Source: Patescibacteria group bacterium
GTDB taxonomy: Bacteria > Patescibacteriota > Saccharimonadia > Saccharimonadales > JAZKJC01
Length of the DNA: 64,000 nt
Assembly (NCBI GenBank): GCA_040384565.1
Contig: JAZKJC010000023.1
Location: 1,481 to 65,480, forward strand
Direction: 5' to 3'
Shown here: piece after piece, positions 3,739-63,423 of the stretch
How positions within the stretch are numbered: position 1 is the stretch's first letter
Layout: each line of letters starts with the position of its first letter
Translations under genes and position numbers: made by a program
Notes under the pieces: model-generated
The model's input: the letters and a program-made list of their open reading frames with translations, nothing else
Databases searched by the model: none
Told to the model about the DNA's origin: nothing

Positions 3739-4144
3739 GATTGCGGTCTTCCTTAGAATTTTCTGAAAAAACAAACATCTTCAAAATCAGGTAATTCCAC
3801 CCAGCTATAAATATCATAGTTGTTAGCTTACTAAGCATGCCCTCAACACCTAATAACCGTAGATATCCTATTAAGGCGTTACTAAACATAAGGTTAATTG
3901 CTGCCAAGCCGCTATAGAACCCCATCTGGGCTCGCAAACGTAGTCTATATTCTGAGCCCTTATTAAATGCCCACCATCGGTTTAGGCTGAAGCTGACAAC
4001 AAACCCCGCCAAAAAGCTGATTGAGTTGGCAACAATTAATGGCAGGCCTAGCTCTTTATATAAAACGTAAAACAATAGATAATCGGTTGCAGCCGCAGCC
4101 AAGCCAACCCGTAAAAACCTGGATAGAGATTTCCCGTGTCTCAT
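3731..4144 (-). CDS. GtrA-family membrane protein
   Basis: 137 aa; LNRWWAFNK and GWNYLILKMFVF motifs; abuts the GT2 gene. Confidence 0.7.
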   Translation of the reverse strand: MRHGKSLSRFLRVGLAAAATDYLLFYVLYKELGLPLIVANSISFLAGFVVSFSLNRWWAFNKGSEYRLRLRAQMGFYSGLAAINLMFSNALIGYLRLLGVEGMLSKLTTMIFIAGWNYLILKMFVFSENSKEDRNLT

Positions 4145-4145
4145 G

Positions 4146-4838
4146 CTAACTTTCCCTCATGACCCTAAACCGATACACCATCAGTTCTCTCAGGATGTTA
4201 AAGGCGTTAAACACCGACTGGCCTTTAGCCTTAGAATAAGCTGTATAGATTATGGTCACTGGCCGTTCAGCGTACCTGAACTGGTTTTCGGCAATGCGGT
4301 AAATTATCTCGGAAGCGTGCGCCATGCCAGAGCAATACAAACGCATTTTTGCCGCCACATCTCTGTCAAAAACTCGCAGTCCATTATGCGTATCAGTCAT
4401 TTTAAGCCCAGTAGTTACGTTAGAGAACCATATAGCCGCCTTAAGCACTACCCGTTTAATTGCAGGCATATCAATGGCACTTCCCAAAAACCGGGAGCCC
4501 AGCACTATATCCACGTCATTCCTGCGCAAATATTTAAGCATTGATGCGGCATCACTTGCCCTATGTTGCCCATCCGCATCAAATGTTATAAAATACTTGT
4601 TTTTTGGATCGCTCAAAGCCTGCTGTATCCCTGTACGCAGTGCAGCCCCAGAACCTTTATTCTTGGCATGCTGAACCAGCTTTACGCCACTTTTCAGAAT
4701 CAAATCGGCTGATTCGTCATCACTACCGTCGTCCACACAAAGAATATTAGCAAATTCCTTTTTAACACTCCTAAGCACATCCTCAATAACCTCGGCTTCG
4801 TTGTAAACCGGAATAATAACACAGGTATCGTGGTTCAC
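4146..4838 (-). CDS. Family-2 glycosyltransferase (polyprenol-phosphate sugar synthase-like)
   Basis: 230 aa; VIIPVYNEAEVI, CVDDGSDDES, FDADGQH (DxD) motifs. Confidence 0.85.
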   Translation of the reverse strand: MNHDTCVIIPVYNEAEVIEDVLRSVKKEFANILCVDDGSDDESADLILKSGVKLVQHAKNKGSGAALRTGIQQALSDPKNKYFITFDADGQHRASDAASMLKYLRRNDVDIVLGSRFLGSAIDMPAIKRVVLKAAIWFSNVTTGLKMTDTHNGLRVFDRDVAAKMRLYCSGMAHASEIIYRIAENQFRYAERPVTIIYTAYSKAKGQSVFNAFNILRELMVYRFRVMRES

Positions 4839-5255: not shown

Positions 5256-6692
5256 TTACAGGCGGCTGAGCGCTAATACGGTACTGGCAAACCCTGCCAG
5301 CATAACTATTGCAATAAATCCTGCGCTATATGTACGTATAAACCGGGCTGCGGGCCCTGGTAGCTCCGGTCTCAGCGCAATCAGTAGTGGCGCTAGCGGT
5401 AACAAGTATCTACCCTGAAAGCCTTCAATAACCGGGTTTCCAACTTTGGTAAAGGCAATATACAACGCCAGGTTTGAAAGAATAAATGTCCCTATCAGCA
5501 CTCCTGCGCTGCACCACTCCAGCCGGTAACCCTCTTTAGCAAGCAGCTTGCTGCGCTTAAAGTTAAGCAAGGCCACTCCAAGCGCCACGTACAATAGCAC
5601 AATGACCGCAATCGGCAGATACAGCAGCTTATTGGTCAGCACCCCGACTAGCCCCGCGTAAACTCCTGCGTAAGCCACTGTCAACGGCGTTATTAAAATA
5701 GTCAGGAGCACCTCAAAGGGATTAGTTAAAATGTATGCAATCTGGTCCAGGCTATCGACATGCAGCCCAGGACGCTGGACAAAGTGCAGGATCGAGGCAA
5801 TTGGTCCCGTGACAGATATATACCACATAGTGATTAAAGCTAAGGCCAAGCTAAACCCTACTCTAACTTTGAGCGCTTTGCGGCCAGAATATGGATAAAA
5901 ACTCGCAGGGATGATCAGTGGAAACGCCGCAATCAGTAAGTAGCCCTGCTTGGTAGTAGCCAGGAAAAAGGCCAGAAATACCATCAGCCCAAAAAGTCCC
6001 TTTGTAAATTTAATCGTTCTAGCCAAAACGGCAATAGTTAGCGCGATAATGAGCCAGGAAACACCATTGACCACCCCATCCATGCCAATCGTAGAAGCCT
6101 GCACATAAGCGGGGGGCAGCAATGCTAGCGAAGCCATGAATAGCTTACCGGTAGGCAGTATCCTAAGCACTCCGTATGTTAGCATTAGCCAAAATATAAA
6201 ACAGCTGAGCCGCGACAAATAAACGTACCAAATAATTGGCAGATCAGCTATCCTGGCAATCAACATTCCAAATGCAGCCGGGAAGTATGACCAAGGCGAA
6301 TACGGCCCCGCAGACGTAAACGAAAGCCTGGTATCATCCGGTGTTTCCAGTTTTTGCTTAGAATATTGCTGTCTTAATTCTTTAAGGCGGTTCGGGTCAG
6401 GATTATTATTTTGGACTTGTTCTCTAAAACCATCATTAAACTCTTTCAATTCCCTTGGGACATATCCACCATAATCATGATCACTAAACTTCTGCGTCCA
6501 AAACGTTCCACGGCTTACTTGATAAGCCCTTGGAAAGTGTACAATCTCATCATTACCATATATCGGCGGTATCATAAAAATCGCCGTCAAGCCACAGATA
6601 AATACAGCCACAAGCCACACATTTAGCGCATTAGCCCTAATCCAATTACCTGCCAGTTTTAGCCAAGAACTGCTTTTGCTTTTCATATACAC
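5256..6692 (-). CDS. Polytopic membrane protein, DUF2142-like (putative glycan-modifying)
   Basis: 478 aa, more than 10 hydrophobic segments. N-terminal loop NDEIVHFPRAYQVSRGTF resembles the DUF2142 signature. Confidence 0.5.
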   Translation of the reverse strand: MYMKSKSSSWLKLAGNWIRANALNVWLVAVFICGLTAIFMIPPIYGNDEIVHFPRAYQVSRGTFWTQKFSDHDYGGYVPRELKEFNDGFREQVQNNNPDPNRLKELRQQYSKQKLETPDDTRLSFTSAGPYSPWSYFPAAFGMLIARIADLPIIWYVYLSRLSCFIFWLMLTYGVLRILPTGKLFMASLALLPPAYVQASTIGMDGVVNGVSWLIIALTIAVLARTIKFTKGLFGLMVFLAFFLATTKQGYLLIAAFPLIIPASFYPYSGRKALKVRVGFSLALALITMWYISVTGPIASILHFVQRPGLHVDSLDQIAYILTNPFEVLLTILITPLTVAYAGVYAGLVGVLTNKLLYLPIAVIVLLYVALGVALLNFKRSKLLAKEGYRLEWCSAGVLIGTFILSNLALYIAFTKVGNPVIEGFQGRYLLPLAPLLIALRPELPGPAARFIRTYSAGFIAIVMLAGFASTVLALSRL

Positions 6693-6730
6693 TCATAATA
6701 CCTTAACCAGAAGCTGGAAGCTGAAAATAT

Positions 6731-6785
6731 TTTACATTTACCATTTTTCAGTTCACAATTATTTACCAATGACCATTTACCAAAC
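6731..6785 (+). repeat. Cassette 5' flank, copy a
   Basis: 51/55 identical to 7704-7758. Contains ATG at 6771 opening a truncated ORF MTIYQTKKTS... that stops at 6855, inside the left arm of hairpin B. Confidence 0.85.
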
Positions 6786-6849
6786 TAAAAAAACTTCAAT
6801 AGCACAATTAACTACACTCAATTCACGGCTTTTACAAATGGTAATTATC

Positions 6850-7018
6850 CTATAGCAACCCCAAAACAAAACCTGTCTTTTTTGGGGTGATGGATCAGTG
6901 AGTCAAAAACTTTCATTTCCGACTAAAACATATCTGTTGATACGTTGCAGGAGGAATGGAAGTTTTTGGCCACTGAGGCGCAACCCAAAATGCAGGTTTT
7001 GTTTTGGGGTTACTATAG
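6850..7018. repeat. ORF-less long hairpin element B
   Basis: A 26-nt terminal inverted repeat: CTATAGCAACCCCAAAACAAAACCTG (6850-6875) pairs with CAGGTTTTGTTTTGGGGTTACTATAG (6993-7018). It has one mismatch, which is G.U on the minus-strand RNA. There is a second inner stem (GTGAGTCAAAAACTTTCATTTCC / GGAATGGAAGTTTTTGGCCACTGAG). The element ends 1 nt from the vapC stop codon. Confidence 0.75.
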
Positions 7019-7703: not shown

Positions 7704-7758
7704 TTTACATTTATCATTTTTCAATTCACAATTACTTATCAATGACCATTTACCAAAC
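7704..7758 (+). repeat. Cassette 5' flank, copy b
   Basis: TTTACATTTATCATTTTTCAATTCACAATTACTTATCAATGACCATTTACCAAAC; includes the start codon of the gene at 7742. Confidence 0.85.
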
Positions 7759-8104
7759 CAAACTACAGCAGCTTGAGCAGCGAACAATCAATTTTAGTGT
7801 CAATATCATAAAAACGTGTGGGAAATATTCGGGCGATGTTACTTTACGTTCACTCATTGATCAGTTAGTACGTGCTTCTACTAGTATTGGGGCTAATTAC
7901 GCGGAGGCAAACAATGCTAGCTCAAAGGCAGATTTCAAAAACAAAATATTCATCGCCAAGAAAGAAGCAGCCGAAACTCGCTACTGGCTAAGAGTATTAT
8001 CAGAACTGCTACCAAACGAGGATTTTAACGAATTATCCCAAGAAGCTCTAGAGCTTAACTTAATTCTACAAAAGATCGTAACTACAATGAACGCAGGCAA
8101 ATAA
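7742..8104 (+). CDS. Four-helix-bundle protein (23S rRNA intervening-sequence protein / Avd-like family)
   Basis: 120 aa; family hallmarks QLVRASTSIGANYAEANNASSKADFKNKIFIAKKEAAETRYWLRVL. Confidence 0.85.
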   Translation: MTIYQTKLQQLEQRTINFSVNIIKTCGKYSGDVTLRSLIDQLVRASTSIGANYAEANNASSKADFKNKIFIAKKEAAETRYWLRVLSELLPNEDFNELSQEALELNLILQKIVTTMNAGK

Positions 8105-8128
8105 TGTTCTCTATTTGGTAAATTTGAA

Positions 8129-9262
8129 ATGGCAAATAATTTGGTAAATCGGCTAATGGTAAATGGTAAATCTTTAAAGGTCGCTCTAGTCTGTGACTGG
8201 TTAACTGGCATTGGTGGCGCGGAGCGGGTTTTGCTGGAACTGCACAAAATGTTTCCAGAAGCCCCAATCTACACCTCCCAATACAACCCCAAAAAAATCG
8301 ATTGGTTCAACGAAGCCGATGTGCGTACTTCGTGGCTACAAAAGCTACCCGTAAGCCTCAAGAAATTTTTGCCCGTATTACGCTTTTGGTACTTCTGGCG
8401 GCTGGACTTGAGCGAGTACGACTTGGTCATATCGGAGACTGGAGCCGAAGCCAAGGCGATCAAATTTGGCTCCTCCACTACTCACATATGCGTCTGTAAC
8501 GCACCGACACATTATTACTGGAGCCGTTACGATGATTATATGAAGCACCCAGGCTTTGGCCCACTTGATCCCCTGGCTCGCCTGGGCCTGCGTTTACTAG
8601 CAGGCCCCTTACGTCGCTGGGACAAAAAAGCCGCTCAGCGCCCAACGCACCTGGTCGCTATTTCTACCCACATCCAAACCGAAATCCAGAAATACTATGG
8701 CCGGGAATCTGCCGTTATCCATCCTCCAGTAGACATAGAACGCTTCCAGCTAACAGCTACCAGCCATGAGCTACCAGCTAAGCGAGGCTTCGCAACCGCA
8801 GGCCGTCAAACCCCCTACAAACGCATAGATTTAGCCGTAGCTGCTTGCACGGAGCTAGAACTGCCACTCACAGTCATAGGGGACGGTCCGGAACACGCCA
8901 AACTTGTTAAAATGGCCGGCCCCACCATCACATTTGTCACTAGTGCTACGGACGAGCAAGTTGCCCAGCATTTCGCCTCCGCCAATGCTTTCATTTTCCC
9001 CGGCCTAGACGATTTTGGAATCGTTGCCGTAGAAGCTTTGGCCGCTGGCACTCCCGTAATAGCTTATCAAGCTGGTGGCGTATTGGATTACCTGGTTGAT
9101 GGAGAAACTGGCGCATTTTTCAGCAAACAAAGTTCGAGGAGCCTTATGCAAGCACTACATAACTTCAACCCAACAAAATATGATTCTGAAAAAATCAAAC
9201 AACATGCCCAAAAATTTTCAGCAGAACAGTTTAGGAATAATTTTGAAAAATTGATTAAGTAA
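8129..9262 (+). CDS. Family-4 (GT-B) glycosyltransferase
   Basis: 377 aa; C-terminal EDFGIVAVEALAAGTPVIA motif. The true start is probably ATG 8156 (MVNGKSLKV), because 8129-8155 is cassette flank low-complexity sequence. Confidence 0.8.
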   Translation: MANNLVNRLMVNGKSLKVALVCDWLTGIGGAERVLLELHKMFPEAPIYTSQYNPKKIDWFNEADVRTSWLQKLPVSLKKFLPVLRFWYFWRLDLSEYDLVISETGAEAKAIKFGSSTTHICVCNAPTHYYWSRYDDYMKHPGFGPLDPLARLGLRLLAGPLRRWDKKAAQRPTHLVAISTHIQTEIQKYYGRESAVIHPPVDIERFQLTATSHELPAKRGFATAGRQTPYKRIDLAVAACTELELPLTVIGDGPEHAKLVKMAGPTITFVTSATDEQVAQHFASANAFIFPGLDDFGIVAVEALAAGTPVIAYQAGGVLDYLVDGETGAFFSKQSSRSLMQALHNFNPTKYDSEKIKQHAQKFSAEQFRNNFEKLIK

Positions 9263-25075: not shown

Positions 25076-27367
25076 TTAATTGCCGCCAACGGCTGCAATG
25101 CCGACAATTGGCTGGAATAGAGGTAAGCCACCTAATGAACCGTAGTTAATAGCTCCGTAGCTGAAGCTACCGCCATCGGCTGCAGCCATGGTGTAACCGC
25201 CGGTTGGGAATCTGGCCATGCCTTTAATGGGCTGAACGAGTGGTAAGTTCCCAGCCGAGCCATATCCTACTGCGTCACCAAAGGGGAATATGCCTCCATC
25301 AGCGGCAACTAACCAGTAACCGTTGCCACTGGCGGTACGCTCCATGCCTACAATAGGTTTAGCAAGATTAATATTACCCGTAGAACCGTAGCCAACTGCG
25401 TCACCAAAGGGGAATATGCCTCCATCAGCGGCAACTAACCAGTAACCGTTGCCTGACGCAGTACGTGCCATACCAACTACCGGTTGCCTAAGATTAATAT
25501 TACCTGTTGAGCCTCTTCCGACTGCGTCACCAAATGGGAAGATACCGCCATCGGCTGCGACTAGCCAGTAACCGTTGCCACTAGGAGATGCTTCCATGCC
25601 TACAATAGGTTTAAAGAGTCTCACATTCCCGGTTGAGCCTAAGCCGCCTTTTGCATTTCCAAATGGGAAGATGCCACCGTCTGCTGCGACAAGCCAATAC
25701 CCTCCACCGTTAGGAGTACTGGCCATTCCTACCATAGGCTGGTTCAAGCGGATATTGCCGGTTGAACCGTAACCCCTGGCTTCTCCGAATGGGAAGATAC
25801 CACCGTCACTTGCTACCATCCAATATCCTTTACCCGCTTCACCTGTTGGACCATCCAGCAGGTCTGTCGCTGCCCATGATCCTGTCTGTCTGGGGTCCTT
25901 GCGGTTCATATGCCAGCCTTTTGCTCCCAGAACGGCATTGTCCGCAGCCTCAAACTCGTAACGACGCAAAACCCCTATATGCCCTGAAGGCTTTTCACCC
26001 GCAACCACAATATCAATCAGGCCATCGCTATCCAGATCTGTAACCAGAGGAGAATTTCTAAATACTACTCCGTCACCTCCATAACTCAGGGTGTATAGCT
26101 CGTTGCCATTTTTGCCATCAAAAATATGAATGCCATTAGCCGTGGGGACTAGGGCATCTTGGCCGCCATCGTTATTTACATCCGCGGTTACAATCTGACC
26201 AATAACTAATGATCCTCCTGAAGCCCGAGGATAACCAGGCAGAGGTTCTCCTGTTACTCCATCCAAAATCCATACTCGTCCGTCATTGGTGTCTGCGGGA
26301 GGATTACAAGGCCGTTGCCAACCACCTATTGCCACATCAAGCCGGCCATCACCATTAAAGTCCGCCATAGTTGGCGACGCCATGGTTTGCGCGCCAATGT
26401 CCTTAGACCATATTAAAGTTCCATTCCGCCTAACCGCAAAGATTTTTGAGCAATCCGTAGCACCACCGGGTTGTCTTGCCCAGTAATTTCCGGTACCAAA
26501 CACAATTTCTATATCACCATCTCCAGTAATATCTCCGATACTGGGCGATGAACGCACAATCTCGTTGGTGTGGAATGCCCATAGCTGTTGGTTTTTGCCG
26601 GTAAGTGCCCGCACCATACCACCACGGTGATCAACAGGGGGCCCTGGTGATGAATCCCCTGGCATAATTATTTCTGTCTGGCCATCACCAGTAATATCAG
26701 CCAGTGCCGGAGAACCATATATTGTGTCATCCCAATAAAGCGGCCAGTTATAGTTCGTCCCGCCATTGCTGGCATTAAGTGACCACGCCCTTAGCCCAAG
26801 CACGCCAAAACTGGCATCGGCAACACCGTCTTTGTTCACATCTCCAAGTGCGGGTGAAGCAAACACTGAGGGTCGGCCACACTGACTACCCTCAAAAGGA
26901 GCATCGTCTGGGAGAATCCTTGGGCTAAAACGCCACGGGCCCCAGGCTGCAAATGAGTACAAACCGCCGTCCCCTTGGCATTCTACTTCTGAGCCACCAG
27001 CCCCAAGGAAAATATCATCATTACCATCCTGGTCAACATCACCAACAGACACGCTATTGGTTGGCGCACTAAGCGTCTCCAGTGTCCAGCCATCATCACC
27101 ATTAAATATACGCGCATCACTTGGTGTCAAACTATTGCCATAAGGTACTGCGGAGCCCAGCACAATATCCAACGAGCCACCGTTTGATTGCATGGGGATT
27201 GGAGAAGAATAGGTAAACGGATTATTGGGAAATTCTTTGGTCCACACAAGTTGTGGCGTAGCAAAGGCTTTAGCGGGACTATTAATGAATAGAAACGTAT
27301 AGCTAGGAGCCATCAAAATAACCAAAAACAGAATTTTTCTCAAAGTTTGTCTAAAAAGCATAGACAT
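25076..27367 (-). CDS. Secreted FG-GAP/VCBS-repeat protein with six C-terminal 42-aa GYWLVAADGGIFPFGDA repeats
   Basis: 763 aa; signal peptide; D.DGDG/ADVNNDG calcium-loop-like FG-GAP motifs. The C-terminal 250 aa is a 42-aa tandem repeat (126-bp DNA period). Confidence 0.7.
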   Translation of the reverse strand: MSMLFRQTLRKILFLVILMAPSYTFLFINSPAKAFATPQLVWTKEFPNNPFTYSSPIPMQSNGGSLDIVLGSAVPYGNSLTPSDARIFNGDDGWTLETLSAPTNSVSVGDVDQDGNDDIFLGAGGSEVECQGDGGLYSFAAWGPWRFSPRILPDDAPFEGSQCGRPSVFASPALGDVNKDGVADASFGVLGLRAWSLNASNGGTNYNWPLYWDDTIYGSPALADITGDGQTEIIMPGDSSPGPPVDHRGGMVRALTGKNQQLWAFHTNEIVRSSPSIGDITGDGDIEIVFGTGNYWARQPGGATDCSKIFAVRRNGTLIWSKDIGAQTMASPTMADFNGDGRLDVAIGGWQRPCNPPADTNDGRVWILDGVTGEPLPGYPRASGGSLVIGQIVTADVNNDGGQDALVPTANGIHIFDGKNGNELYTLSYGGDGVVFRNSPLVTDLDSDGLIDIVVAGEKPSGHIGVLRRYEFEAADNAVLGAKGWHMNRKDPRQTGSWAATDLLDGPTGEAGKGYWMVASDGGIFPFGEARGYGSTGNIRLNQPMVGMASTPNGGGYWLVAADGGIFPFGNAKGGLGSTGNVRLFKPIVGMEASPSGNGYWLVAADGGIFPFGDAVGRGSTGNINLRQPVVGMARTASGNGYWLVAADGGIFPFGDAVGYGSTGNINLAKPIVGMERTASGNGYWLVAADGGIFPFGDAVGYGSAGNLPLVQPIKGMARFPTGGYTMAAADGGSFSYGAINYGSLGGLPLFQPIVGIAAVGGN

Positions 27368-27427: not shown

Positions 27428-29632
27428 TCAGTTTGCGATACCGACCATTGGCTGGCTTAACTGTAAATCTCCAGTCGAACCATAATACCTAGCGTCACCA
27501 TAGGTGAAAATCCCCCCATCGGCACCAACTAACCAATAGCCGTTGCCTAAGGCGGTCTTGGCCATGCCAACAATAGGACGTGCCAATGATAAATTACCTG
27601 CCGAACCGTAGCCAACTGCGTCACCGAACGGGAAGATTCCGCCATCGGCTGCTACTAACCAGTAACCGTTACCTGAGGCTGTCCGCGCCATTCCAACAAC
27701 TGGCGAACGTAACTTAATATTGCCCGTGGAGCCATAGCCTACGGCGTCACCGAACGGGAAGATTCCGCCATCGGCTGCTACTAACCAGTAACCGTTACCT
27801 GAAACTGTTCGCTCCATCCCAACTACCGGCTGAGCTAGACGAATGTTGCCAGTAGATCCATACCCTCCGGCATTACCGAATGGGAAGATGCCCCCATCAG
27901 CGGCAACCAGCCAATAGCCTTGGCCATTAAGTGTGCTTGCCATTCCAACCATGGGTTTGGCCAAATTAATATTTCCAGTTGAGCCCTTGCCTGGGGCGTC
28001 CCCGAATGGGAAGATTCCGCCATCGGCTGCTACGAGCCAATAACCCTCCCGAGTTGGAGTCGCTGAAACCCCCACCATGGGCTTGGTAAGCTTAATGTTT
28101 CCGGTTGAACCGTATCCCCCGGCATCACCAAATGGAAAGATGCCTCCATCCGCGGCTGCTAAAACATAGCCTCCATCCGCTTGGGAAAGAGGAGCACCAT
28201 TGAAGTTAAAAGTTTGCTGAGGGGTAGTCCCCGGCATGGGGTATATATCTAGCTGAATAGTCTCATCTAAGCTAACCCCGCCATCTGTGAGCCGATAAAG
28301 TTCGGTCACAAAATTATCCACAAGGTTACTGCCTTGGTAAGCAAGCACCATTTCGCCGTCAGCAAACCATATGCCGGCATACTCGCATGATTCGCCGGAG
28401 TTTATGGTCCATAGCTCTTGGTGATCAGACCCACGGTAAGCTTTGAGACCTTTAGAAGTAGGTACCAAAATATCATTGCTTGTATGAGAACCAGACAACT
28501 TTACGCTTATCATGCTCGAACGTATAACAGTATTGCTTATTATAAAAGGATATCCCGCTAAGACTGTGCCGTTACTACCATTAACAATGCCTATAGTTGC
28601 ATCCGAAGGGTTAACACTGTTGGTGTGATAAATAATTTCGAGTTCAGGGTCTGCATCCATATTACTTACAATCAAAGAGTAACATGGTGTATTGCTTTGC
28701 CATTTTATGGTGCCATTATAATTAAAAACTCGTAGTTTTTGATTTGTACAGACGACCAACTCATCAGTACCATCACCATCAACATCAGCAGCCAAAGGTT
28801 GTGCAGGTGTTTCCGTACCAAGAGAAGCTTGCCATAATATGGATCCGTTATAGTTAAGGGTGACTACATAGTATTGATCACTACTACCACTCGTTACTCT
28901 GAACTGGCCAATTGTCATTACGTCAGAAAAACCATCACCACTGTAATCGGCAATAACGGAATTATGCAAAAAATGACTATCGCTATAAGGTACGATTGAG
29001 TAGGCTGAGATAGTTTGTGCTAATGCTCCGCTTTTATTCATTCGGTATAAGTTACAGCCTGCTCCTCCAAGCACATCCGGTTGACCATCATGGTCAATAT
29101 CGGCTATTGCTGGTGAGCGCATCTTTGACGCCCCAGAATTTCCGGGGTTACAGTATTCACTGTCACCATACGGTGTTAAGTATTTATCGCCAGAAGAGTA
29201 TTCTATTGCTGTTTTGTAGCTTCTTGGATCGTCACCTGCTTTATGAAAAAGAGATAGACCCAAATCCTCTGTTCCGTCACCATTTAAATCAGCTGCCGAA
29301 TATCCAGACTCATTAACAGCACTTGATGGGTTAGCTACATAGTCTCCTGTTAAGGCTGGTTCTCCAAAGCTATAACCACCAGCTCCATCAGGGTATATGA
29401 TATTCCAGTAAGACCTTAATGAATTTGGAGAGTAGGTGCTGAATAAAACATTATTGTTATAAAATTGGGGGTAGCTTAAAGGCGTAAGACCATTCGTACC
29501 ACTCTGCGGACGATTCGAAGCTAAGAGCTGAACTGCAGAAAGTGCACTAACCTTGGGAAGATATATAGTATTGAGCCCTGTAATGAAAAGGGCACTGATT
29601 ATTAAAAACTTTATTGTTCTATAGAGTGACAT
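27428..29632 (-). CDS. Secreted FG-GAP-repeat protein, tandem paralogue with the same six 42-aa repeats
   Basis: 734 aa; same architecture as 25076-27367. The C-terminal repeat region is nearly identical at protein level, while the N-terminal halves are diverged. Confidence 0.7.
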   Translation of the reverse strand: MSLYRTIKFLIISALFITGLNTIYLPKVSALSAVQLLASNRPQSGTNGLTPLSYPQFYNNNVLFSTYSPNSLRSYWNIIYPDGAGGYSFGEPALTGDYVANPSSAVNESGYSAADLNGDGTEDLGLSLFHKAGDDPRSYKTAIEYSSGDKYLTPYGDSEYCNPGNSGASKMRSPAIADIDHDGQPDVLGGAGCNLYRMNKSGALAQTISAYSIVPYSDSHFLHNSVIADYSGDGFSDVMTIGQFRVTSGSSDQYYVVTLNYNGSILWQASLGTETPAQPLAADVDGDGTDELVVCTNQKLRVFNYNGTIKWQSNTPCYSLIVSNMDADPELEIIYHTNSVNPSDATIGIVNGSNGTVLAGYPFIISNTVIRSSMISVKLSGSHTSNDILVPTSKGLKAYRGSDHQELWTINSGESCEYAGIWFADGEMVLAYQGSNLVDNFVTELYRLTDGGVSLDETIQLDIYPMPGTTPQQTFNFNGAPLSQADGGYVLAAADGGIFPFGDAGGYGSTGNIKLTKPMVGVSATPTREGYWLVAADGGIFPFGDAPGKGSTGNINLAKPMVGMASTLNGQGYWLVAADGGIFPFGNAGGYGSTGNIRLAQPVVGMERTVSGNGYWLVAADGGIFPFGDAVGYGSTGNIKLRSPVVGMARTASGNGYWLVAADGGIFPFGDAVGYGSAGNLSLARPIVGMAKTALGNGYWLVGADGGIFTYGDARYYGSTGDLQLSQPMVGIAN

Positions 29633-49936: not shown

Positions 49937-50109
49937 CTTAGAGCCTGACCCATTCCCCCTGTTCAAAGGGAAAACACCAGCAGGCAGGGAGTTTTTAGCG
50001 GTTTTTTGGCTAAAAGCATACCTAAACGGTATGGTTTTAGTTGAAAAAATGGTAAAAAGCCCTGGACCTGGTGTTTTAGCCGGACGGGGGGAATGGGTCA
50101 GGCTCTTAG
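49937..50109. repeat. ORF-less long hairpin element C
   Basis: A 23-nt terminal inverted repeat: CTTAGAGCCTGACCCATTCCCCC (49937-49959) pairs with GGGGGAATGGGTCAGGCTCTTAG (50087-50109), with one mismatch. An internal loop of about 10x9 nt follows. An imperfect inner stem of about 50 bp (AAACACCAG/CTGGTGTTT, GCATACC/GGTATGG) closes on loop TAAAC. Confidence 0.75.
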
Positions 50110-50124
50110 GGGGCGTGAGATAAT

Positions 50125-50475
50125 GTGCGTATGACGATAAAAAAGTTTGAGGATATAATTGCTTGGCAAAAAGTCAGAGAACTTAATAAAGAGTTAAATT
50201 ACTCATTTGTAGATTTGAGAAATTTTACTTTTAAGGATCAAATTCTGCGCGCCGGTCTATCAATTAACAATAATATCGCAGAAGGTTTTGAAAGAAGTGG
50301 GGATAAAGAACTTAAATATTTTCTGCATGTTGCCCGAGGTTCTGCCGCAGAGGTTCGGTCTATGCTTTATATGGCTTTGGATATGAAGTACATAGAAGAA
50401 GCCCGCTTCCAGGAACTTTACGGCCTTACAGTGGAGGTTGGTCGCTTGATTACGGGTTTTATAAAGAAGTTATGA
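50125..50475 (+). CDS. Four-helix-bundle protein (23S rRNA IVS protein / Avd-like family)
   Basis: 116 aa (likely ATG at 50131: MTIKKFEDIIAWQK). Shows the AWQKVRELNKEL, INNNIAEGFERSGDKE and ARGSAAEVRSMLY hallmarks. Confidence 0.85.
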   Translation: MRMTIKKFEDIIAWQKVRELNKELNYSFVDLRNFTFKDQILRAGLSINNNIAEGFERSGDKELKYFLHVARGSAAEVRSMLYMALDMKYIEEARFQELYGLTVEVGRLITGFIKKL

Positions 50476-57147: not shown

Positions 57148-59067
57148 TTATGCGCCGGGGTACAGACGATTCTGTAGGTCTATCGTTCCCTGCGGTTGGT
57201 TGAATTCACCAGATTGCTCCATGGCCTTAATTTGGTCCGGATTGGTGGTAATAAGTCCCGCCTCTGTTGGGCTGGCTGTTATCTGTATATGCACATGGTT
57301 TTGCCCGGCAAAGAACAGCCCCTGGCCTACCGGGAATTGGCTCAGCCGCTTCTTTTCCTCGCTAGTGAGCTTGAAAGTATCTGCCAAAACATCTACGGCT
57401 GAGGGAGATTGTTTAAGCAAAATTTGCATGCTTGCGTTAGCTACAATTGCCCGGCCCATGCGTGAACCCATAAAGTCTTCAACATCTTGTGTGATGGTGG
57501 TAATGCCAAGGTTATATTTACGAGCCCGCTTAGCCAAAGAAAATAAGAAATTAGCCGAATCCTCATATTTCATCAGCTGCCAGGCTTCGTCGACTATTAA
57601 GATGCGTTTTTTCTGGTCAGATTTAGTCTTATTCCAGATAAAATTCAACACTATATACATTGCTACGGGCCGCAGTTCATCCTCCAGGTCGCGAATATTA
57701 AACACCACCAACGGATTGTTGATGTCTATATTGCTTTGCTGGCTAAAGATGCCCGCGAATGTTCCAGTAGTGTATTTGCGCAGCCTTTGAGCCAACTGTG
57801 GGCCTGTGCCACCCATATGAAGCAGCGTATCGTACAAGTCCGCGATGGTAGGTGGCTGAGAATTGTGTGTTAGTGGGTCATTAGTAATGCCGGCTTTGGC
57901 GTAAGTTTCAATTAATGAAGCATCAAGGTCAGCCTCTTCTGTTGGTGTTAGGGCTGGCGCAATCATGCTGGCGCCGCCTGTTTGGCTAGCAGCCATTTGG
58001 GCTTGAGCACCACCCATCATTAGCCTAAGCAGCCCATGCAAAGTAATTAAGTTGCTTCTTAGCGCATTGTCAGCCTCCTCAGTATCAACTACCTTGGGTA
58101 GTTCAAAGGGGTTAATGCGCACCGTTGAGTTTAGGCTTAAGCGCACATAGGCGCCACCAACGGCTTCAGCCATACGTTCGTACTCATTCTCCGGATCAAT
58201 AATAAAAATTTCTGTGCCGTACATCATGCTGCGGATGGCCTCCAGCTTAACAGTAAAGCTCTTTCCCGCGCCAGACTTGGCAAACACTACTGAATTGCCG
58301 TTTTCCAGAGAAAACCGGTCAAATATAACTAGTCCGGAATTGTGCATATTGATTCCATAGAGAATACCGTTATCTTGTGTCAAATCGGCGCTGGTAAATG
58401 GAAATGTCGTGCTGAGAGCGCCGGTGCTAAAGTTACGCTTAATCTGCAACTGATCACTAAACTGTGGAATCGTGCTGTTGAAGCCCTGCTCCTGCTGGCT
58501 GGTTGCCGGCTTAGAGTAAACCAGTTGCTGGCCCAACACTGACTCCACTTTATGAGCCACAAATTCCAGCTCGTCCATTGAAGAAGCATAGATGGTAAAG
58601 TAAATGCTAAACCGGAAAAATCTTTCCTCACCCACTTGCAACTTGTCGCGCATTTCTTCGGCGTCAATAATAGCCGCTTGTTTGCCGGGGTCACGTACTC
58701 GGCCTTTCTCTGAATCTATCTGAATTCCGGCTTCTATTTGGCTCACTTTTTTGCGCAGATTTTCCAGAACAACCTGGCTTTCCACCGGGTAAACATACAT
58801 CGATAGATCAATAACTTCGTCCAGATTAACGATGCTGGATAGCCAACCCGTAAAGACCTGATGAGGAAAACCAAAAATATAGTACGTCCGGGCAATCCTG
58901 GTACCAATCTGGAAGTGGCTGGCAGAATATTCCAAGGAACTTGGCGCGATAAAATCACGCAGCGCTGTAATGCCCTTTTGGAAAGCAATCTGCACCTCCT
59001 GTTGCTCACGCATCTGCTGCTGCTGTGCCAAACTAACCGGATCCAAAGGTTGCTTACGCTTGCTCAT
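57148..59067 (-). CDS. VirB4/TrbE-family type IV secretion ATPase
   Basis: 639 aa; Walker A FAKSGAGKSFTVK, Walker B ILIVDEAWQLM. The N-terminal domain pattern is RTYYIFGFPHQVFTGWL. Confidence 0.75.
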   Translation of the reverse strand: MSKRKQPLDPVSLAQQQQMREQQEVQIAFQKGITALRDFIAPSSLEYSASHFQIGTRIARTYYIFGFPHQVFTGWLSSIVNLDEVIDLSMYVYPVESQVVLENLRKKVSQIEAGIQIDSEKGRVRDPGKQAAIIDAEEMRDKLQVGEERFFRFSIYFTIYASSMDELEFVAHKVESVLGQQLVYSKPATSQQEQGFNSTIPQFSDQLQIKRNFSTGALSTTFPFTSADLTQDNGILYGINMHNSGLVIFDRFSLENGNSVVFAKSGAGKSFTVKLEAIRSMMYGTEIFIIDPENEYERMAEAVGGAYVRLSLNSTVRINPFELPKVVDTEEADNALRSNLITLHGLLRLMMGGAQAQMAASQTGGASMIAPALTPTEEADLDASLIETYAKAGITNDPLTHNSQPPTIADLYDTLLHMGGTGPQLAQRLRKYTTGTFAGIFSQQSNIDINNPLVVFNIRDLEDELRPVAMYIVLNFIWNKTKSDQKKRILIVDEAWQLMKYEDSANFLFSLAKRARKYNLGITTITQDVEDFMGSRMGRAIVANASMQILLKQSPSAVDVLADTFKLTSEEKKRLSQFPVGQGLFFAGQNHVHIQITASPTEAGLITTNPDQIKAMEQSGEFNQPQGTIDLQNRLYPGA

Positions 59068-59086
59068 TGGTTAACCCCAATGAGTT

Positions 59087-59150
59087 CAAATCCGAAATCT
59101 GAAATCAGAAAACCGAAACAAATCCGAAATCTGAAATCAGAAAACCGAAA
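59087..59150. repeat. 2 x 32-bp tandem repeat (3' flank of cassette)
   Basis: CAAATCCGAAATCTGAAATCAGAAAACCGAAA occurs twice in perfect tandem. Confidence 0.9.
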
Positions 59151-59152
59151 CA

Positions 59153-59554
59153 TTACGCCGTGCTCCTAAGGATGGCGCCAAGAATTTTCATGATTTCAGT
59201 AGCTTCATTCAAGAGCTTCTGTTGAGCGGCTATGAACTCCGGTGGAGCAACCATAACTTCCAGCCACCAAATTGTTTCCCTAGCTTCTTTCTTTGCGATT
59301 TTTATACGCATAGCAAAGTCTTTCTTGCTAAGTGATTCATTAGCCTCAAGATAATTCGCGCCAACAGAACCCGAAGAACGAACCACTTGTTTCCCATCTT
59401 CTATGAATGCTGTTGTCTTAGGCAGCTTACTCACAAAAGAACGAACATCACGCGCAAATAATAACGCACGATCCTCCAGGTCAAACCGTTTCTGATTTCG
59501 TGCTTCGAGTTTCGTATTTGTTTCTGATTTCGTGCTTCGAGTTTCGTATTTCAT
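59153..59554 (-). CDS. Four-helix-bundle protein (23S rRNA IVS protein / Avd-like family)
   Basis: 133 aa; FDLEDRALLFARDV, SSGSVGANYLEANESLSKKDF, KKEARETIWWLEV. The first 22 aa are encoded by flank repeats. The start overlaps the upstream stop as TAATG. Confidence 0.85.
   Translation of the reverse strand: MKYETRSTKSETNTKLEARNQKRFDLEDRALLFARDVRSFVSKLPKTTAFIEDGKQVVRSSGSVGANYLEANESLSKKDFAMRIKIAKKEARETIWWLEVMVAPPEFIAAQQKLLNEATEIMKILGAILRSTA
59488..59551. repeat. 2 x 32-bp tandem repeat (5' flank of cassette, inside its N-terminal codons)
   Basis: GTTTCTGATTTCGTGCTTCGAGTTTCGTATTT occurs twice. It is an imperfect inverted counterpart of 59087-59150, sharing TTTCTGATTTC / GAAATCAGAAA. Confidence 0.9.
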
Positions 59555-60516
59555 TATTGTAGTTCTTTCTCAAGGTTTGGCTGGCGAGCCATACCTTGTC
59601 CCTTTTCTATGACAGGGGCTGATAAATCCGCGAAATTTTTGAGTGGTTGCCGTGTGGCTGTATCTGGGTTATAAGTATCATAATAAAGCTCAATCAACTC
59701 CTGGGTATCCAAGGGCAATCCCTGGATACTGCACTGTTGCAGCCCGCCCAATACGGCCTGTACTCGGTTACGTAATTCATCCTTGGCTTTATTCAAATCC
59801 GCCTCATGAATAGTGACATGTTGCTGCTTATTATTAAGCAAACCCTTAAGCCCGCTAAAAAAGTTTTTGCTTTGTGTCAGGGCTTTAGTGAGATCCGCTA
59901 TCGGGAAATACGGCACCACCACATAAAACTTCTTGTCCATGATGTTGGTTTGCTGTGACAAATCACTAATAAAGCCAATGTAATCCTCCATCAGCAACGA
60001 TAAAAGCATGTTGTCATGTTCTGAGCGGATTTTATCTAAACGGTCAATATAGGGGCGTAAATCTACTTTTTGCGAACGGACAAAAATTTGTACTGGGAAG
60101 TAAAGCGAGTTCAAAAAGCCCTGATAACTATACTCTACGGCTTCGCGTTCCTGTGGACTCATCAGATCAAAATTAATAGATTTAACCATAATCACAGATC
60201 TGAAACTGCCATCATTCATAATGACTATGCCGTCCCTTATCTCGGCGATTTGCAAGGTGTTCTGGGTACTGTTTGGGTTTGATTTGATTGGGGCTACAGC
60301 TGGAGCCAAGCCTTGCATGCCAACAGGCATAGCCGGTTGCATTGGCGTCCCTAGGCTATAACCCTGAGGTTGTTGATAGGCTGGTGGATAGGCTTGAGCT
60401 TGGCCAACTGGGCTTGGCGGTGGCGGTCCATAGGCAGCGTAAGGGTCTGTCGCGACAGGCTGGGGTGCCTGAGCTCCCATCTGCGGGTTATTCTGCGCTT
60501 GTGTATTTGGATCCAT
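59554..60516 (-). CDS. T4SS-cluster protein: Pro/Gln-rich N-terminus plus a domain resembling VirB4 N-terminal regions, no ATPase motifs
   Basis: 320 aa. RSVIMVKSINFDLMSPQEREAVEYSYQGFLNSLYFPVQIFVRSQKVDLRPYI is reminiscent of VirB4-type N-domains. This assignment is tentative. Confidence 0.4.
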   Translation of the reverse strand: MDPNTQAQNNPQMGAQAPQPVATDPYAAYGPPPPSPVGQAQAYPPAYQQPQGYSLGTPMQPAMPVGMQGLAPAVAPIKSNPNSTQNTLQIAEIRDGIVIMNDGSFRSVIMVKSINFDLMSPQEREAVEYSYQGFLNSLYFPVQIFVRSQKVDLRPYIDRLDKIRSEHDNMLLSLLMEDYIGFISDLSQQTNIMDKKFYVVVPYFPIADLTKALTQSKNFFSGLKGLLNNKQQHVTIHEADLNKAKDELRNRVQAVLGGLQQCSIQGLPLDTQELIELYYDTYNPDTATRQPLKNFADLSAPVIEKGQGMARQPNLEKELQ

Positions 60517-60838
60517 CTTTATTCTTTTCCCACCTAAGAAAGTTATAATTACATCTTATTATATCAAGACAGTGAGTTAAGTGCACAGAATAGCCCATTT
60601 ATTAATTTTCAATTTTCAATTTTTCAATTTTCAATCAAGGATCAATGACTCAAATAATCCAAAAATTCGACCTGGAGGAACGGACGGCTCGTTTCGGGGA
60701 AGACGTCATTAAACTTTGTCGAACCATTAAGCAAGATGCTATTACCCGTAGTTTGGTTGATCAAGTCATACGATCGGCGACAAGTATAGGAGCTAACTAT
60801 ATGGAAGCCAATGGCGCGAGTTCTAAAAAGGATTTTCG

Positions 60839-61932
60839 AGGTTATAGGAACTTTCGTGGAGGTTTTGGCTCCTCCGTTCGGCTGTAAAGATACCACTCAA
60901 CCAGCCGTCTTTGGTGTTCTTCGCTCATGCCCCGATGTAGCTTGAGCTTGGTTCTGAGCTGGGAGTTAATACCACCCTCTACATAGTTAGTAGTTCTGGG
61001 GATTGGTTCGGTAGTTAGCGCAGTATCCAGGTAAGTGAATAATTGGTTAGTTTGCACTAGTTTCTCCAGTTGTTTGTAGGCTGAGCGTAAGCCCCTATGG
61101 GTATACCACCAGCGTCTATGACCGCTGGTTGGACTGGCAAAGTAGGTTCGCTCCCGGATGAAGCTACCGTATTGTTCCTGCCATGCCTGGAGACGTTGTT
61201 GCCACTCCAGCGATTGTTGGCTGGTCTTGACCTGCCACAAATCTCTGGTGAGTTGGAGTAGCTCCTGTCCAGCAATGGTTTGCGGATGGAGCGTGAGCTT
61301 AACCCGGATGTTCTGCCAGACATGAAACACACAACGCTGAATCCTGGTCTTTGGCCAGCACCGAACAATAGCCAGCAGGACACCTTTCTGGCCATCACAA
61401 ACGATCACTAAGGGAGCTGGCAGCCTCCCAAGCAGCAGCGACCAGGTATTCCCAGATTCCCAACCGACCCACTGCCAGGCGATAACAGCAGTTGGGGTGC
61501 GGGCTATGAGGCAGACCATACTACCAACTCGGATACCGTCAATGAGGATGATGGGGTATAGCTCACCCGTAACCTCAGGCTTTGGAGCAATCTCCCAGCA
61601 CCAGGCTGTCTGAGACCGCCAGGCGCGGTCAGTTACGCCATGGCCGAGTTCGGTCTGCGATTGTTTACCTAGCAACCAGGATACGAAGCGTTCTAGTACA
61701 AATGCCTGGCTTAAGTCAGCTCGTGGCTTGGTAGCACTGCTGGTGCAGCGCGGGCAATACCATCGTTGAGTGCCAGCAGCCGTTAAGCCACGTTTTTGTA
61801 GTTTCTTGCTGCACGTGGGACAGGCATACTTATAGGCTCTTTTTTCATACCATTAATGTCTCACGACATTAATTAAACACAAATAACAGAGGGGAATTGG
61901 TTAAAAAACCTCCACGAAATTTCCGATTAGCC
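60839..61932 (-). mobile_element. IS element (IS256/Mutator-like transposase) with 8-bp target duplication
   Basis: 1094 bp. Direct repeat GATTTTCG lies at 60831-60838 and 61933-61940. The terminal inverted repeats of about 28 bp are imperfect (..GGAACTTTCGTGGAGGTTTT / AAAACCTCCACGAAATTTCC..). Confidence 0.8.
60842..61848 (-). CDS. DDE transposase (IS256/Mutator-like), N-terminal Zn-ribbon out of frame at an A6 run
   Basis: The main ORF carries VCDGQKGVLLAIVRCWPKTRIQRCVFHVWQN and TTNYVEGGINSQLR. Upstream, the same frame encodes YACPTCSKKL...WYCPRCT. The only ATG (61848) is one frame off, across AAAAAAG (61840-61845). Confidence 0.65.
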
Positions 61933-62167
61933 GATTTTCGTAACAAAGCACATATCTGCAAAAAAGAAGCTCAGGAAACCCAGCACTGGCTCCGTATGCT
62001 AAGTGCCGCTGTACCAGAACATAAAGACGCATTACGCGTCCTGTGGCAAGAGGACCATGAATTCGTACTAATCTTCCAGAAAATAATTTCGAGTTTGAAA
62101 CAATGAAAAATGGTATTTGAATGAAAATTGATAATTGTAAATTGGAAATTCCTTTGCGCTAACTCAC

Positions 62168-63045: not shown

Positions 63046-63423
63046 GTGCGGTACAATTGGCTTATGAAAGGACACTCATTTCGGGATATTATTGCGTGGC
63101 AAAAAGCGCATAGCCTTTGTGTCGATATTTATAAAATTTTAGCCAGTAATAAAGATTTTTCTTACAGGGATCAAATACAGCGTGCGGCTGTATCCATAAT
63201 GAATAATATTGCCGAAGGACATTCCAGAAGGAGCGACAAATCGTTCCGAAACCTTCTGCTCATAGCTAAGGGTTCGGCCGCAGAAGTTGAATCTATGCTT
63301 GAACTTGGGAAAAGCTTGGGGTACTTCACCTCAATTCAACACGAAGACCTCACCCAAAGAGTTGACGAAATTTCTCGTCTAATAACTGGCCTGGTTAAAT
63401 TCCTAGAAACCCGCCAGCCCTAG
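63046..63423 (+). CDS. Four-helix-bundle protein (23S rRNA IVS protein / Avd-like family)
   Basis: 125 aa; FRDIIAWQKAHSL, IMNNIAEGHSRRSDKSF, AKGSAAEVESML. Flanked by TGAGAGGTGAG (63009-63019) and CTCATCTCTCA (63442-63452). Confidence 0.85.
   Translation: MRYNWLMKGHSFRDIIAWQKAHSLCVDIYKILASNKDFSYRDQIQRAAVSIMNNIAEGHSRRSDKSFRNLLLIAKGSAAEVESMLELGKSLGYFTSIQHEDLTQRVDEISRLITGLVKFLETRQP

Follow-up and report, generated by a model that had tools for sequence, protein, structure and literature searches.

An intervening-sequence-type cassette probably threaded into the trsD-virB4 coupling chain of a Saccharimonadales type IV secretion operon

How can a foreign gene be lodged between two genes of a secretion operon whose reading frames, in most related genomes, overlap? 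This question is raised by a stretch of 64,000 nucleotides (nt), hereafter the window, from a Patescibacteria group bacterium (assembly GCA_040384565.1, contig JAZKJC010000023.1, positions 1,481 to 65,480). The host belongs to the Saccharimonadales, in the Candidate Phyla Radiation (CPR). On the minus strand of the window, a cassette encoding a four-helix-bundle protein lies between a trsD-like gene and virB4, two components of a type IV secretion system (T4SS). The whole analysis reported here is a sequence comparison. It leads us to the view that the cassette is probably a selfish element of the intervening sequence (IVS) type, translationally threaded into the chain that couples trsD to virB4. 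It seems to be tolerated because ribosomes can pass from frame to frame, first through the cassette and then through a short relay frame behind it.

The anatomy of the locus is described in the direction of transcription, all features being on the minus strand. The trsD-like gene (59554-60516, 320 aa), the upstream partner of virB4, ends with a TAA at 59556-59554, which shares one nucleotide with the ATG of the cassette (59554-59552) in a first TAATG (59552-59556; ...CAA TAATG AAA TAC...). The cassette open reading frame (ORF; 59153-59554, 133 aa, with a core at residues 23-133) begins by reading through a 5′ arm at 59488-59551, a perfect 2×32-nt tandem repeat made of CGAAAY-type heptamers, which is translated as residues 2-22. 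At its other end, the stop codon of the cassette overlaps a further ATG in a second TAATG (59151-59155). This ATG opens a mini-ORF of 29 codons (MFRFSDFRFRICFGFLISDFGFELIGVNQ, then stop; 59064-59153), hereafter the relay ORF, which spans the 3′ arm and whose TGA overlaps the ATG of virB4 (ATGA). The 3′ arm is a perfect 2×32-nt tandem repeat of TTTCNGA-type heptamers at 59087-59152 (the array being 59087-59150, or 59152). Inside the relay ORF, a perfect 8-bp hairpin, CTCATTGG-GGTTAA-CCAATGAG (59063-59084), appears in the predicted minimum free energy (MFE) folds, where it buries the virB4 AUG (59067-59065) as well as part of a GGGG motif (59075-59078) resembling a Shine-Dalgarno (SD) sequence. 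The virB4 gene follows at 57148-59067 (639 aa). From the trsD stop to the virB4 ATG we measured 486 nt, for the approximately 490 bp given in a preliminary description of this DNA. The one-base overlap between the upstream stop and the cassette ATG, also reported there, is present in the sequence. The relay ORF and the second TAATG had been overlooked.

Is the cassette an insertion, or a normal part of the operon? For comparison, we took the 80 best of 553 VirB4 relatives; 78 of their loci have both genes, and in these the trsD/virB4 junction was measured. A 1-nt overlap (TAATG, or its TAGTG and TGATG variants) was found in 52 of them, and the distance between the two genes is at most 5 nt in 63, the 52 included. 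One locus (L003) has a gap of 19 nt, 13 have short inserts of 43-169 nt, and a single one (L028) has a PF05635 cassette. No insert is present in L001, L002, L004 and L013, the nearest VirB4 relatives of the window (91-92% identity); L008 has one of 101 nt. The cassette is therefore an insertion relative to most relatives. The preliminary description had taken it for an insert within the T4SS operon and had proposed a comparison with clusters lacking it. That comparison sides with it, as the cassette does not occupy the same position in all relatives.

The place of the insertion is precise. In insert-free loci, an SD sequence is contained in the last trsD codons (...R/K-E-L-Q, followed by the stop). 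The trsD gene of the window ends with ...EKELQ-TAATG, and the cassette ATG stands at the position where virB4 starts in insert-free loci, so that this ATG may well be the former virB4 start. The translational-coupling geometry proposed earlier thus stands, with the cassette ATG placed on the upstream stop at the usual virB4-start position, and the relay ORF extends the chain as far as virB4 itself.

Genomes carrying the cassette at the same junction provided the second line of evidence. Eight other genomes have it between trsD and virB4 (L028, from the VirB4 comparison, L081, L082, L083, L085, L088, L089, and L097, from a metagenome scan); of 152 cassette relatives, the best 80 were taken for the comparison of loci. 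In the protein search, close relatives of the cassette number about 40 (59-81% identity, 128-151 aa), and every one with a readable context lies between a TraC-like/trsD gene and virB4. All eight orthologous cassettes examined start on or beside the trsD stop, and L097, on a short contig, is alike. In all eight, a relay ORF of 26-39 aa overlaps the stop of the cassette on one side and the start of virB4 on the other; public gene calls list it in L088 and L089. Restart signals are present as well. In the window, an AGGAG motif lies about 8-9 nt upstream of the relay ATG, within the last cassette codons, and its predicted duplex with the anti-SD sequence has an energy of −6.5 kcal/mol. The eight orthologues have AGGAG, AAGGAG, AAGGAA or GAGGAA 5-9 nt before the relay ATG, encoded by the conserved C-terminus of the cassette protein (...ILR(S/N/K)...), and GGAGG, GGGGGG or a similar motif 4-7 nt before the virB4 start. 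Before the cassette start itself, an SD-like motif was found in six of the eight, the motif being weak or 13 nt away in the window and in L089. In orthologues and short-insert loci, the SD is also closely preceded by nucleotides complementary to it, as in CCTCC-GAA-GGAGG. SD-masking hairpins are thus possible, RNAfold having paired the SD in some orthologues only.

The orthologues further indicate that the element is old. In the four-helix core, the proportion of differing sites is 0.22 for nonsynonymous (pN) and 0.84 for synonymous (pS) positions. Synonymous sites are saturated, and the cassette protein has therefore been under long-standing purifying selection. In the translated arm, pN is higher than in the core (0.31) and pS lower (0.57), a pattern that suggests constraint on the nucleotide sequence and not on the peptide. 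CGAAAY-type heptamers are found in all junction orthologues. Their arms contain perfect duplications that are not multiples of a triplet (2×32 in the window, 2×25 in L081, 2.5×32 in the 3′ arm of L083, four copies of AAATACG in L089), and the length of the 5′ arm is nevertheless a multiple of three in every orthologue. The reading frame is being kept despite a rapid turnover of the arm repeats. In more distant relatives (48-63% identity), a CGAAAY- or CTAAAY-type 5′ arm lies upstream of the element's own ATG (M-x7-YDLEER) and is untranslated. The junction lineage lost this internal ATG and starts at the ATG of the host. This bears on the 22-aa N-terminal extension, which the preliminary description had held to be absent from other family members. 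It is indeed absent from the four other PF05635 genes of the window and from ordinary family members, but present in every orthologue at the trsD/virB4 junction, and in all close relatives retrieved.

The 13 short inserts (L008, L009, L010, L012, L014, L020, L031, L037, L042, L053, L066, L071 and L073) give a picture of the junction that does not depend on the cassette. They are mutually unrelated and lie exactly at the trsD/virB4 junction, many of them with heptamer-like repeats. In all 13, an ATG or GTG on the trsD stop opens a frame of 13-57 codons that crosses the whole insert, its stop lying at 0, −1, −8 or +2 nt relative to the start of virB4; many contain an SD-masking hairpin sequence of the CCTCC-GAA-GGAGG kind. 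When short inserts were counted together with the eight 3′-arm relays, leaving out L042, whose frame ends 2 nt early, the relay frame was open in 20 of 20 inserts. It was the sole open frame in 18 of them, and the shuffle probabilities of the single inserts multiply to ~1e-14. The junction thus appears to be under selection for ribosome hand-over. Two possible origins of the short inserts were tried and rejected. As mini-IVS hairpins, they fold no better than shuffled sequences (z −1.4 to +1.3), L031 excepted. As scars of former cassettes, ten of the 13 show nothing, and L012 and L020 are marginal; L008 alone resembles a cassette 3′ arm (p 0.04, uncorrected), which makes a scar origin a suggestion only.

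To what family does the element belong? The cassette protein is of the S23p type: it matched PF05635 (23S rRNA intervening-sequence protein; 49.2 bits for a cut-off of 33.8, E 6.6e-13) and TIGR02436 (“four helix bundle protein”; 67.7 bits, cut-off 24, E 8.8e-19). A phmmer search matched it to PDB 2rld_A (E 1.3e-14), the crystal structure of a Bacteroides protein of the “S23 ribosomal protein family”. In an AlphaFold2 (AF2) model of the monomer built from 38 sequences, with a predicted local distance difference test (pLDDT) score of 87, helices are found at residues 27-42, 48-72, 77-100 and 105-132. Residues 1-3 and 5-22, corresponding to the translated arm, fall below a pLDDT of 50 and are predicted to be disordered. 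The best Foldseek matches of this model were 2rld (TMt, the target-normalised TM-score, 0.82; 33% identity) and 2gsc (TMt 0.82), with five chains each, followed by Avd proteins. AF2 and Foldseek place the cassette product among up-down four-helix bundles of ~110 residues, like the solved S23-family structures; a toroidal homopentamer has been described for S23p (PMC4990558). On the four-helix nature of the protein, which the preliminary description had already recognised, PF05635, TIGR02436, 2rld, AF2 and Foldseek all agree. In NCBI, it is already annotated under the name “four helix bundle protein”, in a Patescibacteria metagenome-assembled genome (P0001). Membership of a defence system was considered and rejected, as PADLOC gave no match for any of the four PF05635 proteins tested.

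Insertions in 23S rRNA that carry an ORF of the S23p/PF05635 family are known in Leptospira, Coxiella burnetii, Brucella and Haemophilus. That of Coxiella is a selfish element of 428-444 nt with an S23p ORF, whose inverted repeats at the termini make up a 28-bp stem and which is excised by RNase III. Just 5′ of its ATG lie three tandem GACAGAT heptamers, the copy number of which varies by strain (PMC4990558). In CPR bacteria too, insertions in rRNA may carry PF05635 ORFs (PMC11270868), and no function, origin or mobility mechanism is accepted for IVS/S23p ORFs (PMC4990558). The cassette shares with these rRNA elements its protein family, its size class (about 430-490 nt), an ORF between complementary termini that can pair into a long stem, tandem heptamers of variable copy number just upstream of or across the ORF start (PMC4990558), and a patchy distribution. 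It differs in location, the rRNA IVS being found in helix 25 or 45 of 23S rRNA and the cassette in an mRNA between two protein-coding genes. No Rfam family, rRNA included, reached its gathering score anywhere in the window, and a known RNA family for the insert was accordingly discarded. Unlike the rRNA elements, the cassette has both arms translated, borrows the start codon of its host, and possesses a relay ORF that would restore coupling to the downstream gene. Moreover, the Coxiella ORF is apparently untranslated and decaying, whereas that of the cassette is under strong purifying selection. Having complementary termini, to whose pairing composition contributes, and 5′-side tandem heptamers, and lying outside any rRNA gene, the cassette is IVS-like and is not an rRNA IVS.

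The pairing of the arms deserves a closer look. Tandem Repeats Finder (TRF) and a repeat finder both confirmed the perfect, imperfectly inverted 2×32 repeats of the preliminary description, with scores of 128 for the 5′ and 132 for the 3′ arm. The two copies within each arm are 100% identical, TRF sub-periods are 14 nt in the 5′ arm and 7 nt in the 3′ arm, and the latter is an imperfect inverted copy of the former, 24 of 32 positions (75%) being complementary. The predicted arm-arm duplex of the window has an energy of −42.7 kcal/mol, its MFE fold contains 35 arm-arm pairs, with an ensemble expectation of 39, and the fold of the whole insert has a z of −4.4. Arm-arm pairs, 18 to 40 of them, were predicted in the MFE folds of all eight orthologues. 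Over 13 different elements, arms pair better with their own partner than with a foreign one (−45.4 vs −34.8 kcal/mol, permutation p 3e-5), from which complementarity of the arms would be a family-level requirement, independent of their actual sequence. From these predictions, pairing of the arms in vivo, or processing by RNase III, may be envisaged.

Three other known systems were compared with the locus. Avd is a pentamer that binds reverse transcriptase and RNA. The bAvd proteins of diversity-generating retroelements (PF22296; PDB 4DWL, 8UB7) are, like the cassette product, small and basic, and belong to the same four-helix superfamily; in Foldseek, Avd matched the cassette model with a probability of 0.99-1.0 and a TMt of 0.65-0.72, at a sequence identity of 12-14%. 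PF22296 itself did not match the cassette, and gave 17-20 bits, for a cut-off of 40, with two other copies of the window. No reverse transcriptase domain was detected among the scanned neighbour ORFs (trsD, virB4, the transposase of an insertion sequence (IS), vapBC and unassigned ORFs), template and variable repeats not having been sought. We take the likeness as a lead towards nucleic-acid binding only. Our guess, by analogy, is that the cassette protein could be an S23p/Avd-like oligomer binding nucleic acid, perhaps the arms, and serving the element and not the T4SS. With systems of termination-reinitiation coupling, the locus has in common overlapping stop and start codons (here TAATG, TAATG and ATGA in a row), SD-like motifs in the preceding coding sequence, and a structured start that upstream translation would open. 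Unlike in those systems, the chain crosses a foreign element and a dedicated 29-codon ORF, the peptide of which is probably meaningless. As for inteins and self-splicing introns, they resemble the cassette in occupying a conserved, essential region of the host, in leaving the host product undisturbed, and in being patchily present among close relatives. The cassette however shows neither RNA nor protein splicing, has no homing endonuclease, and would owe its silence to a hand-over of ribosomes between separate ORFs.

The genes on either side belong to a chromosomal T4SS operon. The trsD-like protein gave weak NCBIfam matches to VirB4_plasma (positions 98-255) and to TrsD/TraD, its orthologues at related loci carry PF26593 (TraC-like), and it appears to be a remote relative of the N-terminal part of VirB4. 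The virB4 product has the Pfam TraG P-loop/AAA_10 ATPase domain, matches NCBIfam conju_CD1110 over positions 182-732 (E 1e-105), and corresponds to a full-length VirB4 without its N-terminal third. Gene order in orthologous loci is TrbL_3 - PrgI - TraC-like - VirB4, which agrees with that reported for CPR T4SS (10.1101/2025.01.22.634366); MPF-FATA-like systems have a virB4 preceded by trsD, with prgI/virB3 and a virB6-like gene upstream, and the system is of this type. According to the same work, TrsD is a remote homologue of the VirB4 N-terminus usually adjoining virB4, is the CPR T4SS component of widest occurrence, and is essential in Southlakia epibionticum, a cultured relative (10.1101/2025.01.22.634366). 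VirB4 is 81-92% identical in the 80 Saccharimonadales genomes, and all of its relatives are Saccharimonadales or Patescibacteria. A cyanobacterial affinity, at first suggested by the heptamers and by the abundance of “four helix bundle” genes, was ruled out on this ground and by the absence of HIP1 sites (highly iterated palindromes) from the 64-kb window.

How did the cassette come to its present distribution? On a neighbour-joining (NJ) tree of VirB4, carriers are scattered, each with non-carriers as nearest neighbours, so that a single origin with one carrier clade was not retained; this is a quick tree of a very conserved protein, and hence weak. Elsewhere, the subfamily occupies other sites: for 46 of 47 metagenome relatives with a determinable context, the element lies outside the trsD/virB4 junction. 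In L091, a member of the same subfamily with the same CGAAAY arm type is inserted between aconitase-family large and small subunit genes (leuC and leuD-like), and in L094 another, with CCAAATA-type arms, lies beside pyrG. The cassette is an old, patchily distributed resident of the junction, not a recent insertion. We read its history as one of mostly vertical inheritance, with repeated losses and perhaps some exchange between lineages by homologous recombination; independent homing of cassettes to the same site is another possibility. A second, independent threaded PF05635 element was found in another metagenomic lineage (L143, 2426-2851; also L162 and L163). There, the cassette start sits on the stop of an Ig-domain surface-protein gene (ATGA), and the cassette stop overlaps, again by ATGA, an ORF of 320-338 aa whose N-terminus is the translated 3′ arm.

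Two observations on individual loci may be added. The T4SS cluster of L083 contains three PF05635 genes, at 2394-2759 upstream of trsD, at 4001-4402 between trsD and virB4, and at 6482-6874 immediately behind virB4; the stop of this third gene overlaps the start of the next gene (TAATG). In L091 (3703-4470), an extra small ORF with a hydrophobic stretch lies between the 5′ arm and the four-helix gene.

Taken together, these results lead us to propose the following course of translation. Ribosomes ending trsD at the TAA would restart on the overlapping ATG, at the position of the former virB4 start. They would read the 5′ arm as a disordered tail of 22 aa and then make the four-helix protein. 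Stopping at the second TAATG, they would restart on the 29-codon relay ORF and travel through the 3′ arm, melting on their way the 8-bp hairpin that hides the virB4 AUG. A last stop at the ATGA would let them restart on virB4, and coupling of TrsD to VirB4 would survive 486 nt of foreign sequence. The cassette had been described as an operon insert in a translational-coupling geometry, and an independent promoter and terminator around it would have spoken against this. None was found above chance around it: a simple scan gave no sigma-70-like promoter next to the cassette, and terminator-like hits were at chance level and inside ORFs. This is a weak negative, since CPR promoters may not fit the sigma-70 consensus.

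Several points weigh against this proposal. Reinitiation and use of the relay are inferred from geometry and conservation, and the SD before the cassette ATG of the window is weak (−2.7 kcal/mol). Mobility of the element is deduced solely from its patchy distribution and varied contexts. No transposase of the element and no identical second copy were found, and no convincing target-site duplication was seen at the cassette ends beyond a shared ATG/AATGA, the likeness between the tails of trsD and of the relay going no further than SD, stop and start demand. The arm pairing is partly an effect of composition, an A-rich arm facing a U-rich one, which inflates the pairing statistics; arm-shuffled controls (mononucleotide shuffles) reach up to 38 expected pairs, against the 39 of the window. 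Lineage-specific covariation of the arms was sought in the eight junction orthologues and rejected, own and foreign duplexes being equal (p 0.36) because all share the CGAAAY/TTTCG motifs. Finally, translation of both arms works against a stable stem, or cleavage by RNase III, on translated mRNA.

This last point bears directly on a reading in which the arms make the junction an RNA-processing site. They would pair, RNase III would split the operon mRNA, and trsD and virB4 would be uncoupled or differentially expressed. Such a reading is improbable to our minds. It can appeal to the ORF-bearing IVSs with complementary termini that are cut out by RNase III (PMC4990558), to the 18-40 pairs predicted in each of the eight orthologues, and to the energy of the arm duplex and the z of the whole-insert fold in the window. 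But both arms are part of open frames that are conserved and provided with SD-like motifs and stop/start overlaps, where ribosomes would pass through and unwind them. The stem has many mismatches, complementarity being only 75%, and a cut would deprive the cassette ORF of its start and take away the relay. RNA processing is in addition compatible with the threaded model, as untranslated transcripts could still be cut.

Alternatively, the cassette may be a domesticated gene: in this lineage, its protein would serve the T4SS as an accessory subunit or a regulator and be produced at a constant ratio to TrsD and VirB4, the arms then being mere relics. Its conservation at one junction in nine genomes (the window and eight others), with a core pN of 0.22 and saturated pS, is what one would expect of such a gene. 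So is the partial congruence of cassette and VirB4 divergence: the two distances are correlated (r 0.50, Mantel p 0.025), and together with the long conservation at one site this would also fit a role beneficial to the host, which is a further argument against selfishness. The overlaps on both sides have a geometry suited to co-translation. In addition, a search with hidden Markov models found five PF05635 genes in 977 kb of T4SS-flanking DNA of 80 related species, and four of the five sit in T4SS intergenic spots. Against it, the cassette is absent from 77 of 78 related species, including the nearest VirB4 relatives of each carrier. The same subfamily is found between leuC and leuD, beside pyrG and in 46 other metagenome contexts, four further PF05635 elements of the window lie away from the T4SS junction, and selfish rRNA IVS elements are where this family is typically found. 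Domestication hence seems to us unlikely. The recent arrival of a non-autonomous insertion, resembling a miniature inverted-repeat transposable element (MITE) and carrying an ORF by chance, with accidental overlaps, may be considered very improbable. Inverted terminal arms, a presence/absence polymorphism in close relatives and the insertion nearby of an IS and two vapBC modules are in its favour. Yet the saturation of synonymous sites among same-site orthologues implies an old element, and of the marks of a transposon or MITE the inverted arms alone are present: target-site duplication (beyond ATG/AATGA), transposase and near-identical copies were not found, nor was a second similar copy in the window. 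Besides, the overlap geometry is kept in all eight orthologues and recurs in 13 unrelated short inserts, and is therefore not accidental. The IVS-type element threaded into the coupling chain is thus the reading that we favour.

The window contains four further PF05635 genes, at 7742-8104, 50125-50475, 63046-63423 and 60645-62106, the last one split by an IS. Relative to the T4SS-flanking DNA of related species mentioned above, the window is ~15-fold enriched in this family. Where they align with the cassette, the five members show 19-35% identity to it, and their arms differ. Each further gene is flanked by complementary arms of its own, of period 7-8 nt and with a different unit: TTTACCA/TGGTAAA, GATAGYC-type (TRF period 8)/ACTATTGGACT, AATTTTC/GAAAATT, and TGAGAGG/CCTCTCA-like. 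In the 7742 element, the TGGTAAA repeats of the 3′ arm (8105-8175) overlap the 5′ end of ORF 8129-9262, whose likely start (ATGGTAAATGGTAAATCT...) is inside the arm, so that the arm may supply the start codon of a neighbour.

Other insertions are found in and around these elements. The IS at 60839-61932, which carries a fragment of a Mutator/IS256-family transposase (ORF 60842-61675, minus strand), splits the PF05635 gene starting at 60645, and is bordered by an 8-bp target duplication, GATTTTCG, at 60831-60838 and 61933-61940. Two vapBC modules (PIN toxin and antitoxin) each lie between direct repeats. The first (6720-6790/7700-7760) is bracketed by ~60 nt that duplicate the 7742 element's 5′ arm, and the second (62165-62190/62897-62927) by AGCTAATAGCT...GATGGCxTATAG repeats. 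It looks as if the vapBC pairs had been inserted into or beside element arms. In the 50125 element, a segment of ~170 nt (49940-50110) with long inverted repeat ends (AGAGCCTGACCCATTCCCCC / GGGGGAATGGGTCAGGCTCT) is nested between 5′ arm and ORF. Away from PF05635 genes, tandem repeats of 126 nt (42 aa; 2.5-3.5 copies, 76-80% identity) were observed at 25269-25613 and 27516-28045, in the adjacent large ORFs 25076-27367 and 27428-29632 (minus strand), which may encode repeat-containing surface proteins.

What is new in these observations? The gene family, the IVS architecture, the gene order of CPR T4SS and the annotation of the protein as “four helix bundle protein” are already known. We know of no described case of an inserted element bridged by a relay ORF between coupled genes, and none was found in the literature either. 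Nor did we find there a description of such an element in a T4SS operon, or of recurrent relay inserts between trsD and virB4; the words “four helix” are absent from the text of the T4SS preprint (10.1101/2025.01.22.634366). A practical consequence concerns annotation: relay ORFs of 26-39 codons are mostly uncalled, and start codons beside such elements are easily misplaced.

IVS elements and S23p ORFs have been known for some decades, and some Saccharibacteria are genetically tractable. We tentatively raise a broader idea, about which we have more doubt than confidence, namely that PF05635 IVS-type elements may be a selfish class able to colonise any RNA position that tolerates a looped-out hairpin. 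If so, such positions would include rRNA helices and tightly coupled gene junctions, and in operons the elements would survive through a “translational pass-through”, either built in or rapidly evolved: a 5′ arm readable from the host start, a 3′ arm serving as relay ORF, a new SD and a structured downstream start. This would be a third route, beside RNA and protein splicing, to a phenotypically silent insertion in an essential locus, and would open a first experimental way to the action of S23p proteins and IVS arms. What the present locus adds is an element of the IVS kind in a protein-coding operon that is essential to the epibiotic lifestyle of a cultured Saccharibacterium (10.1101/2025.01.22.634366). 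The junction would also offer a natural example of selection on translational coupling, with 21 independent or orthologous inserts and a relay frame kept in all, and it suggests a general rule for the insertions that an extremely compact genome can tolerate.

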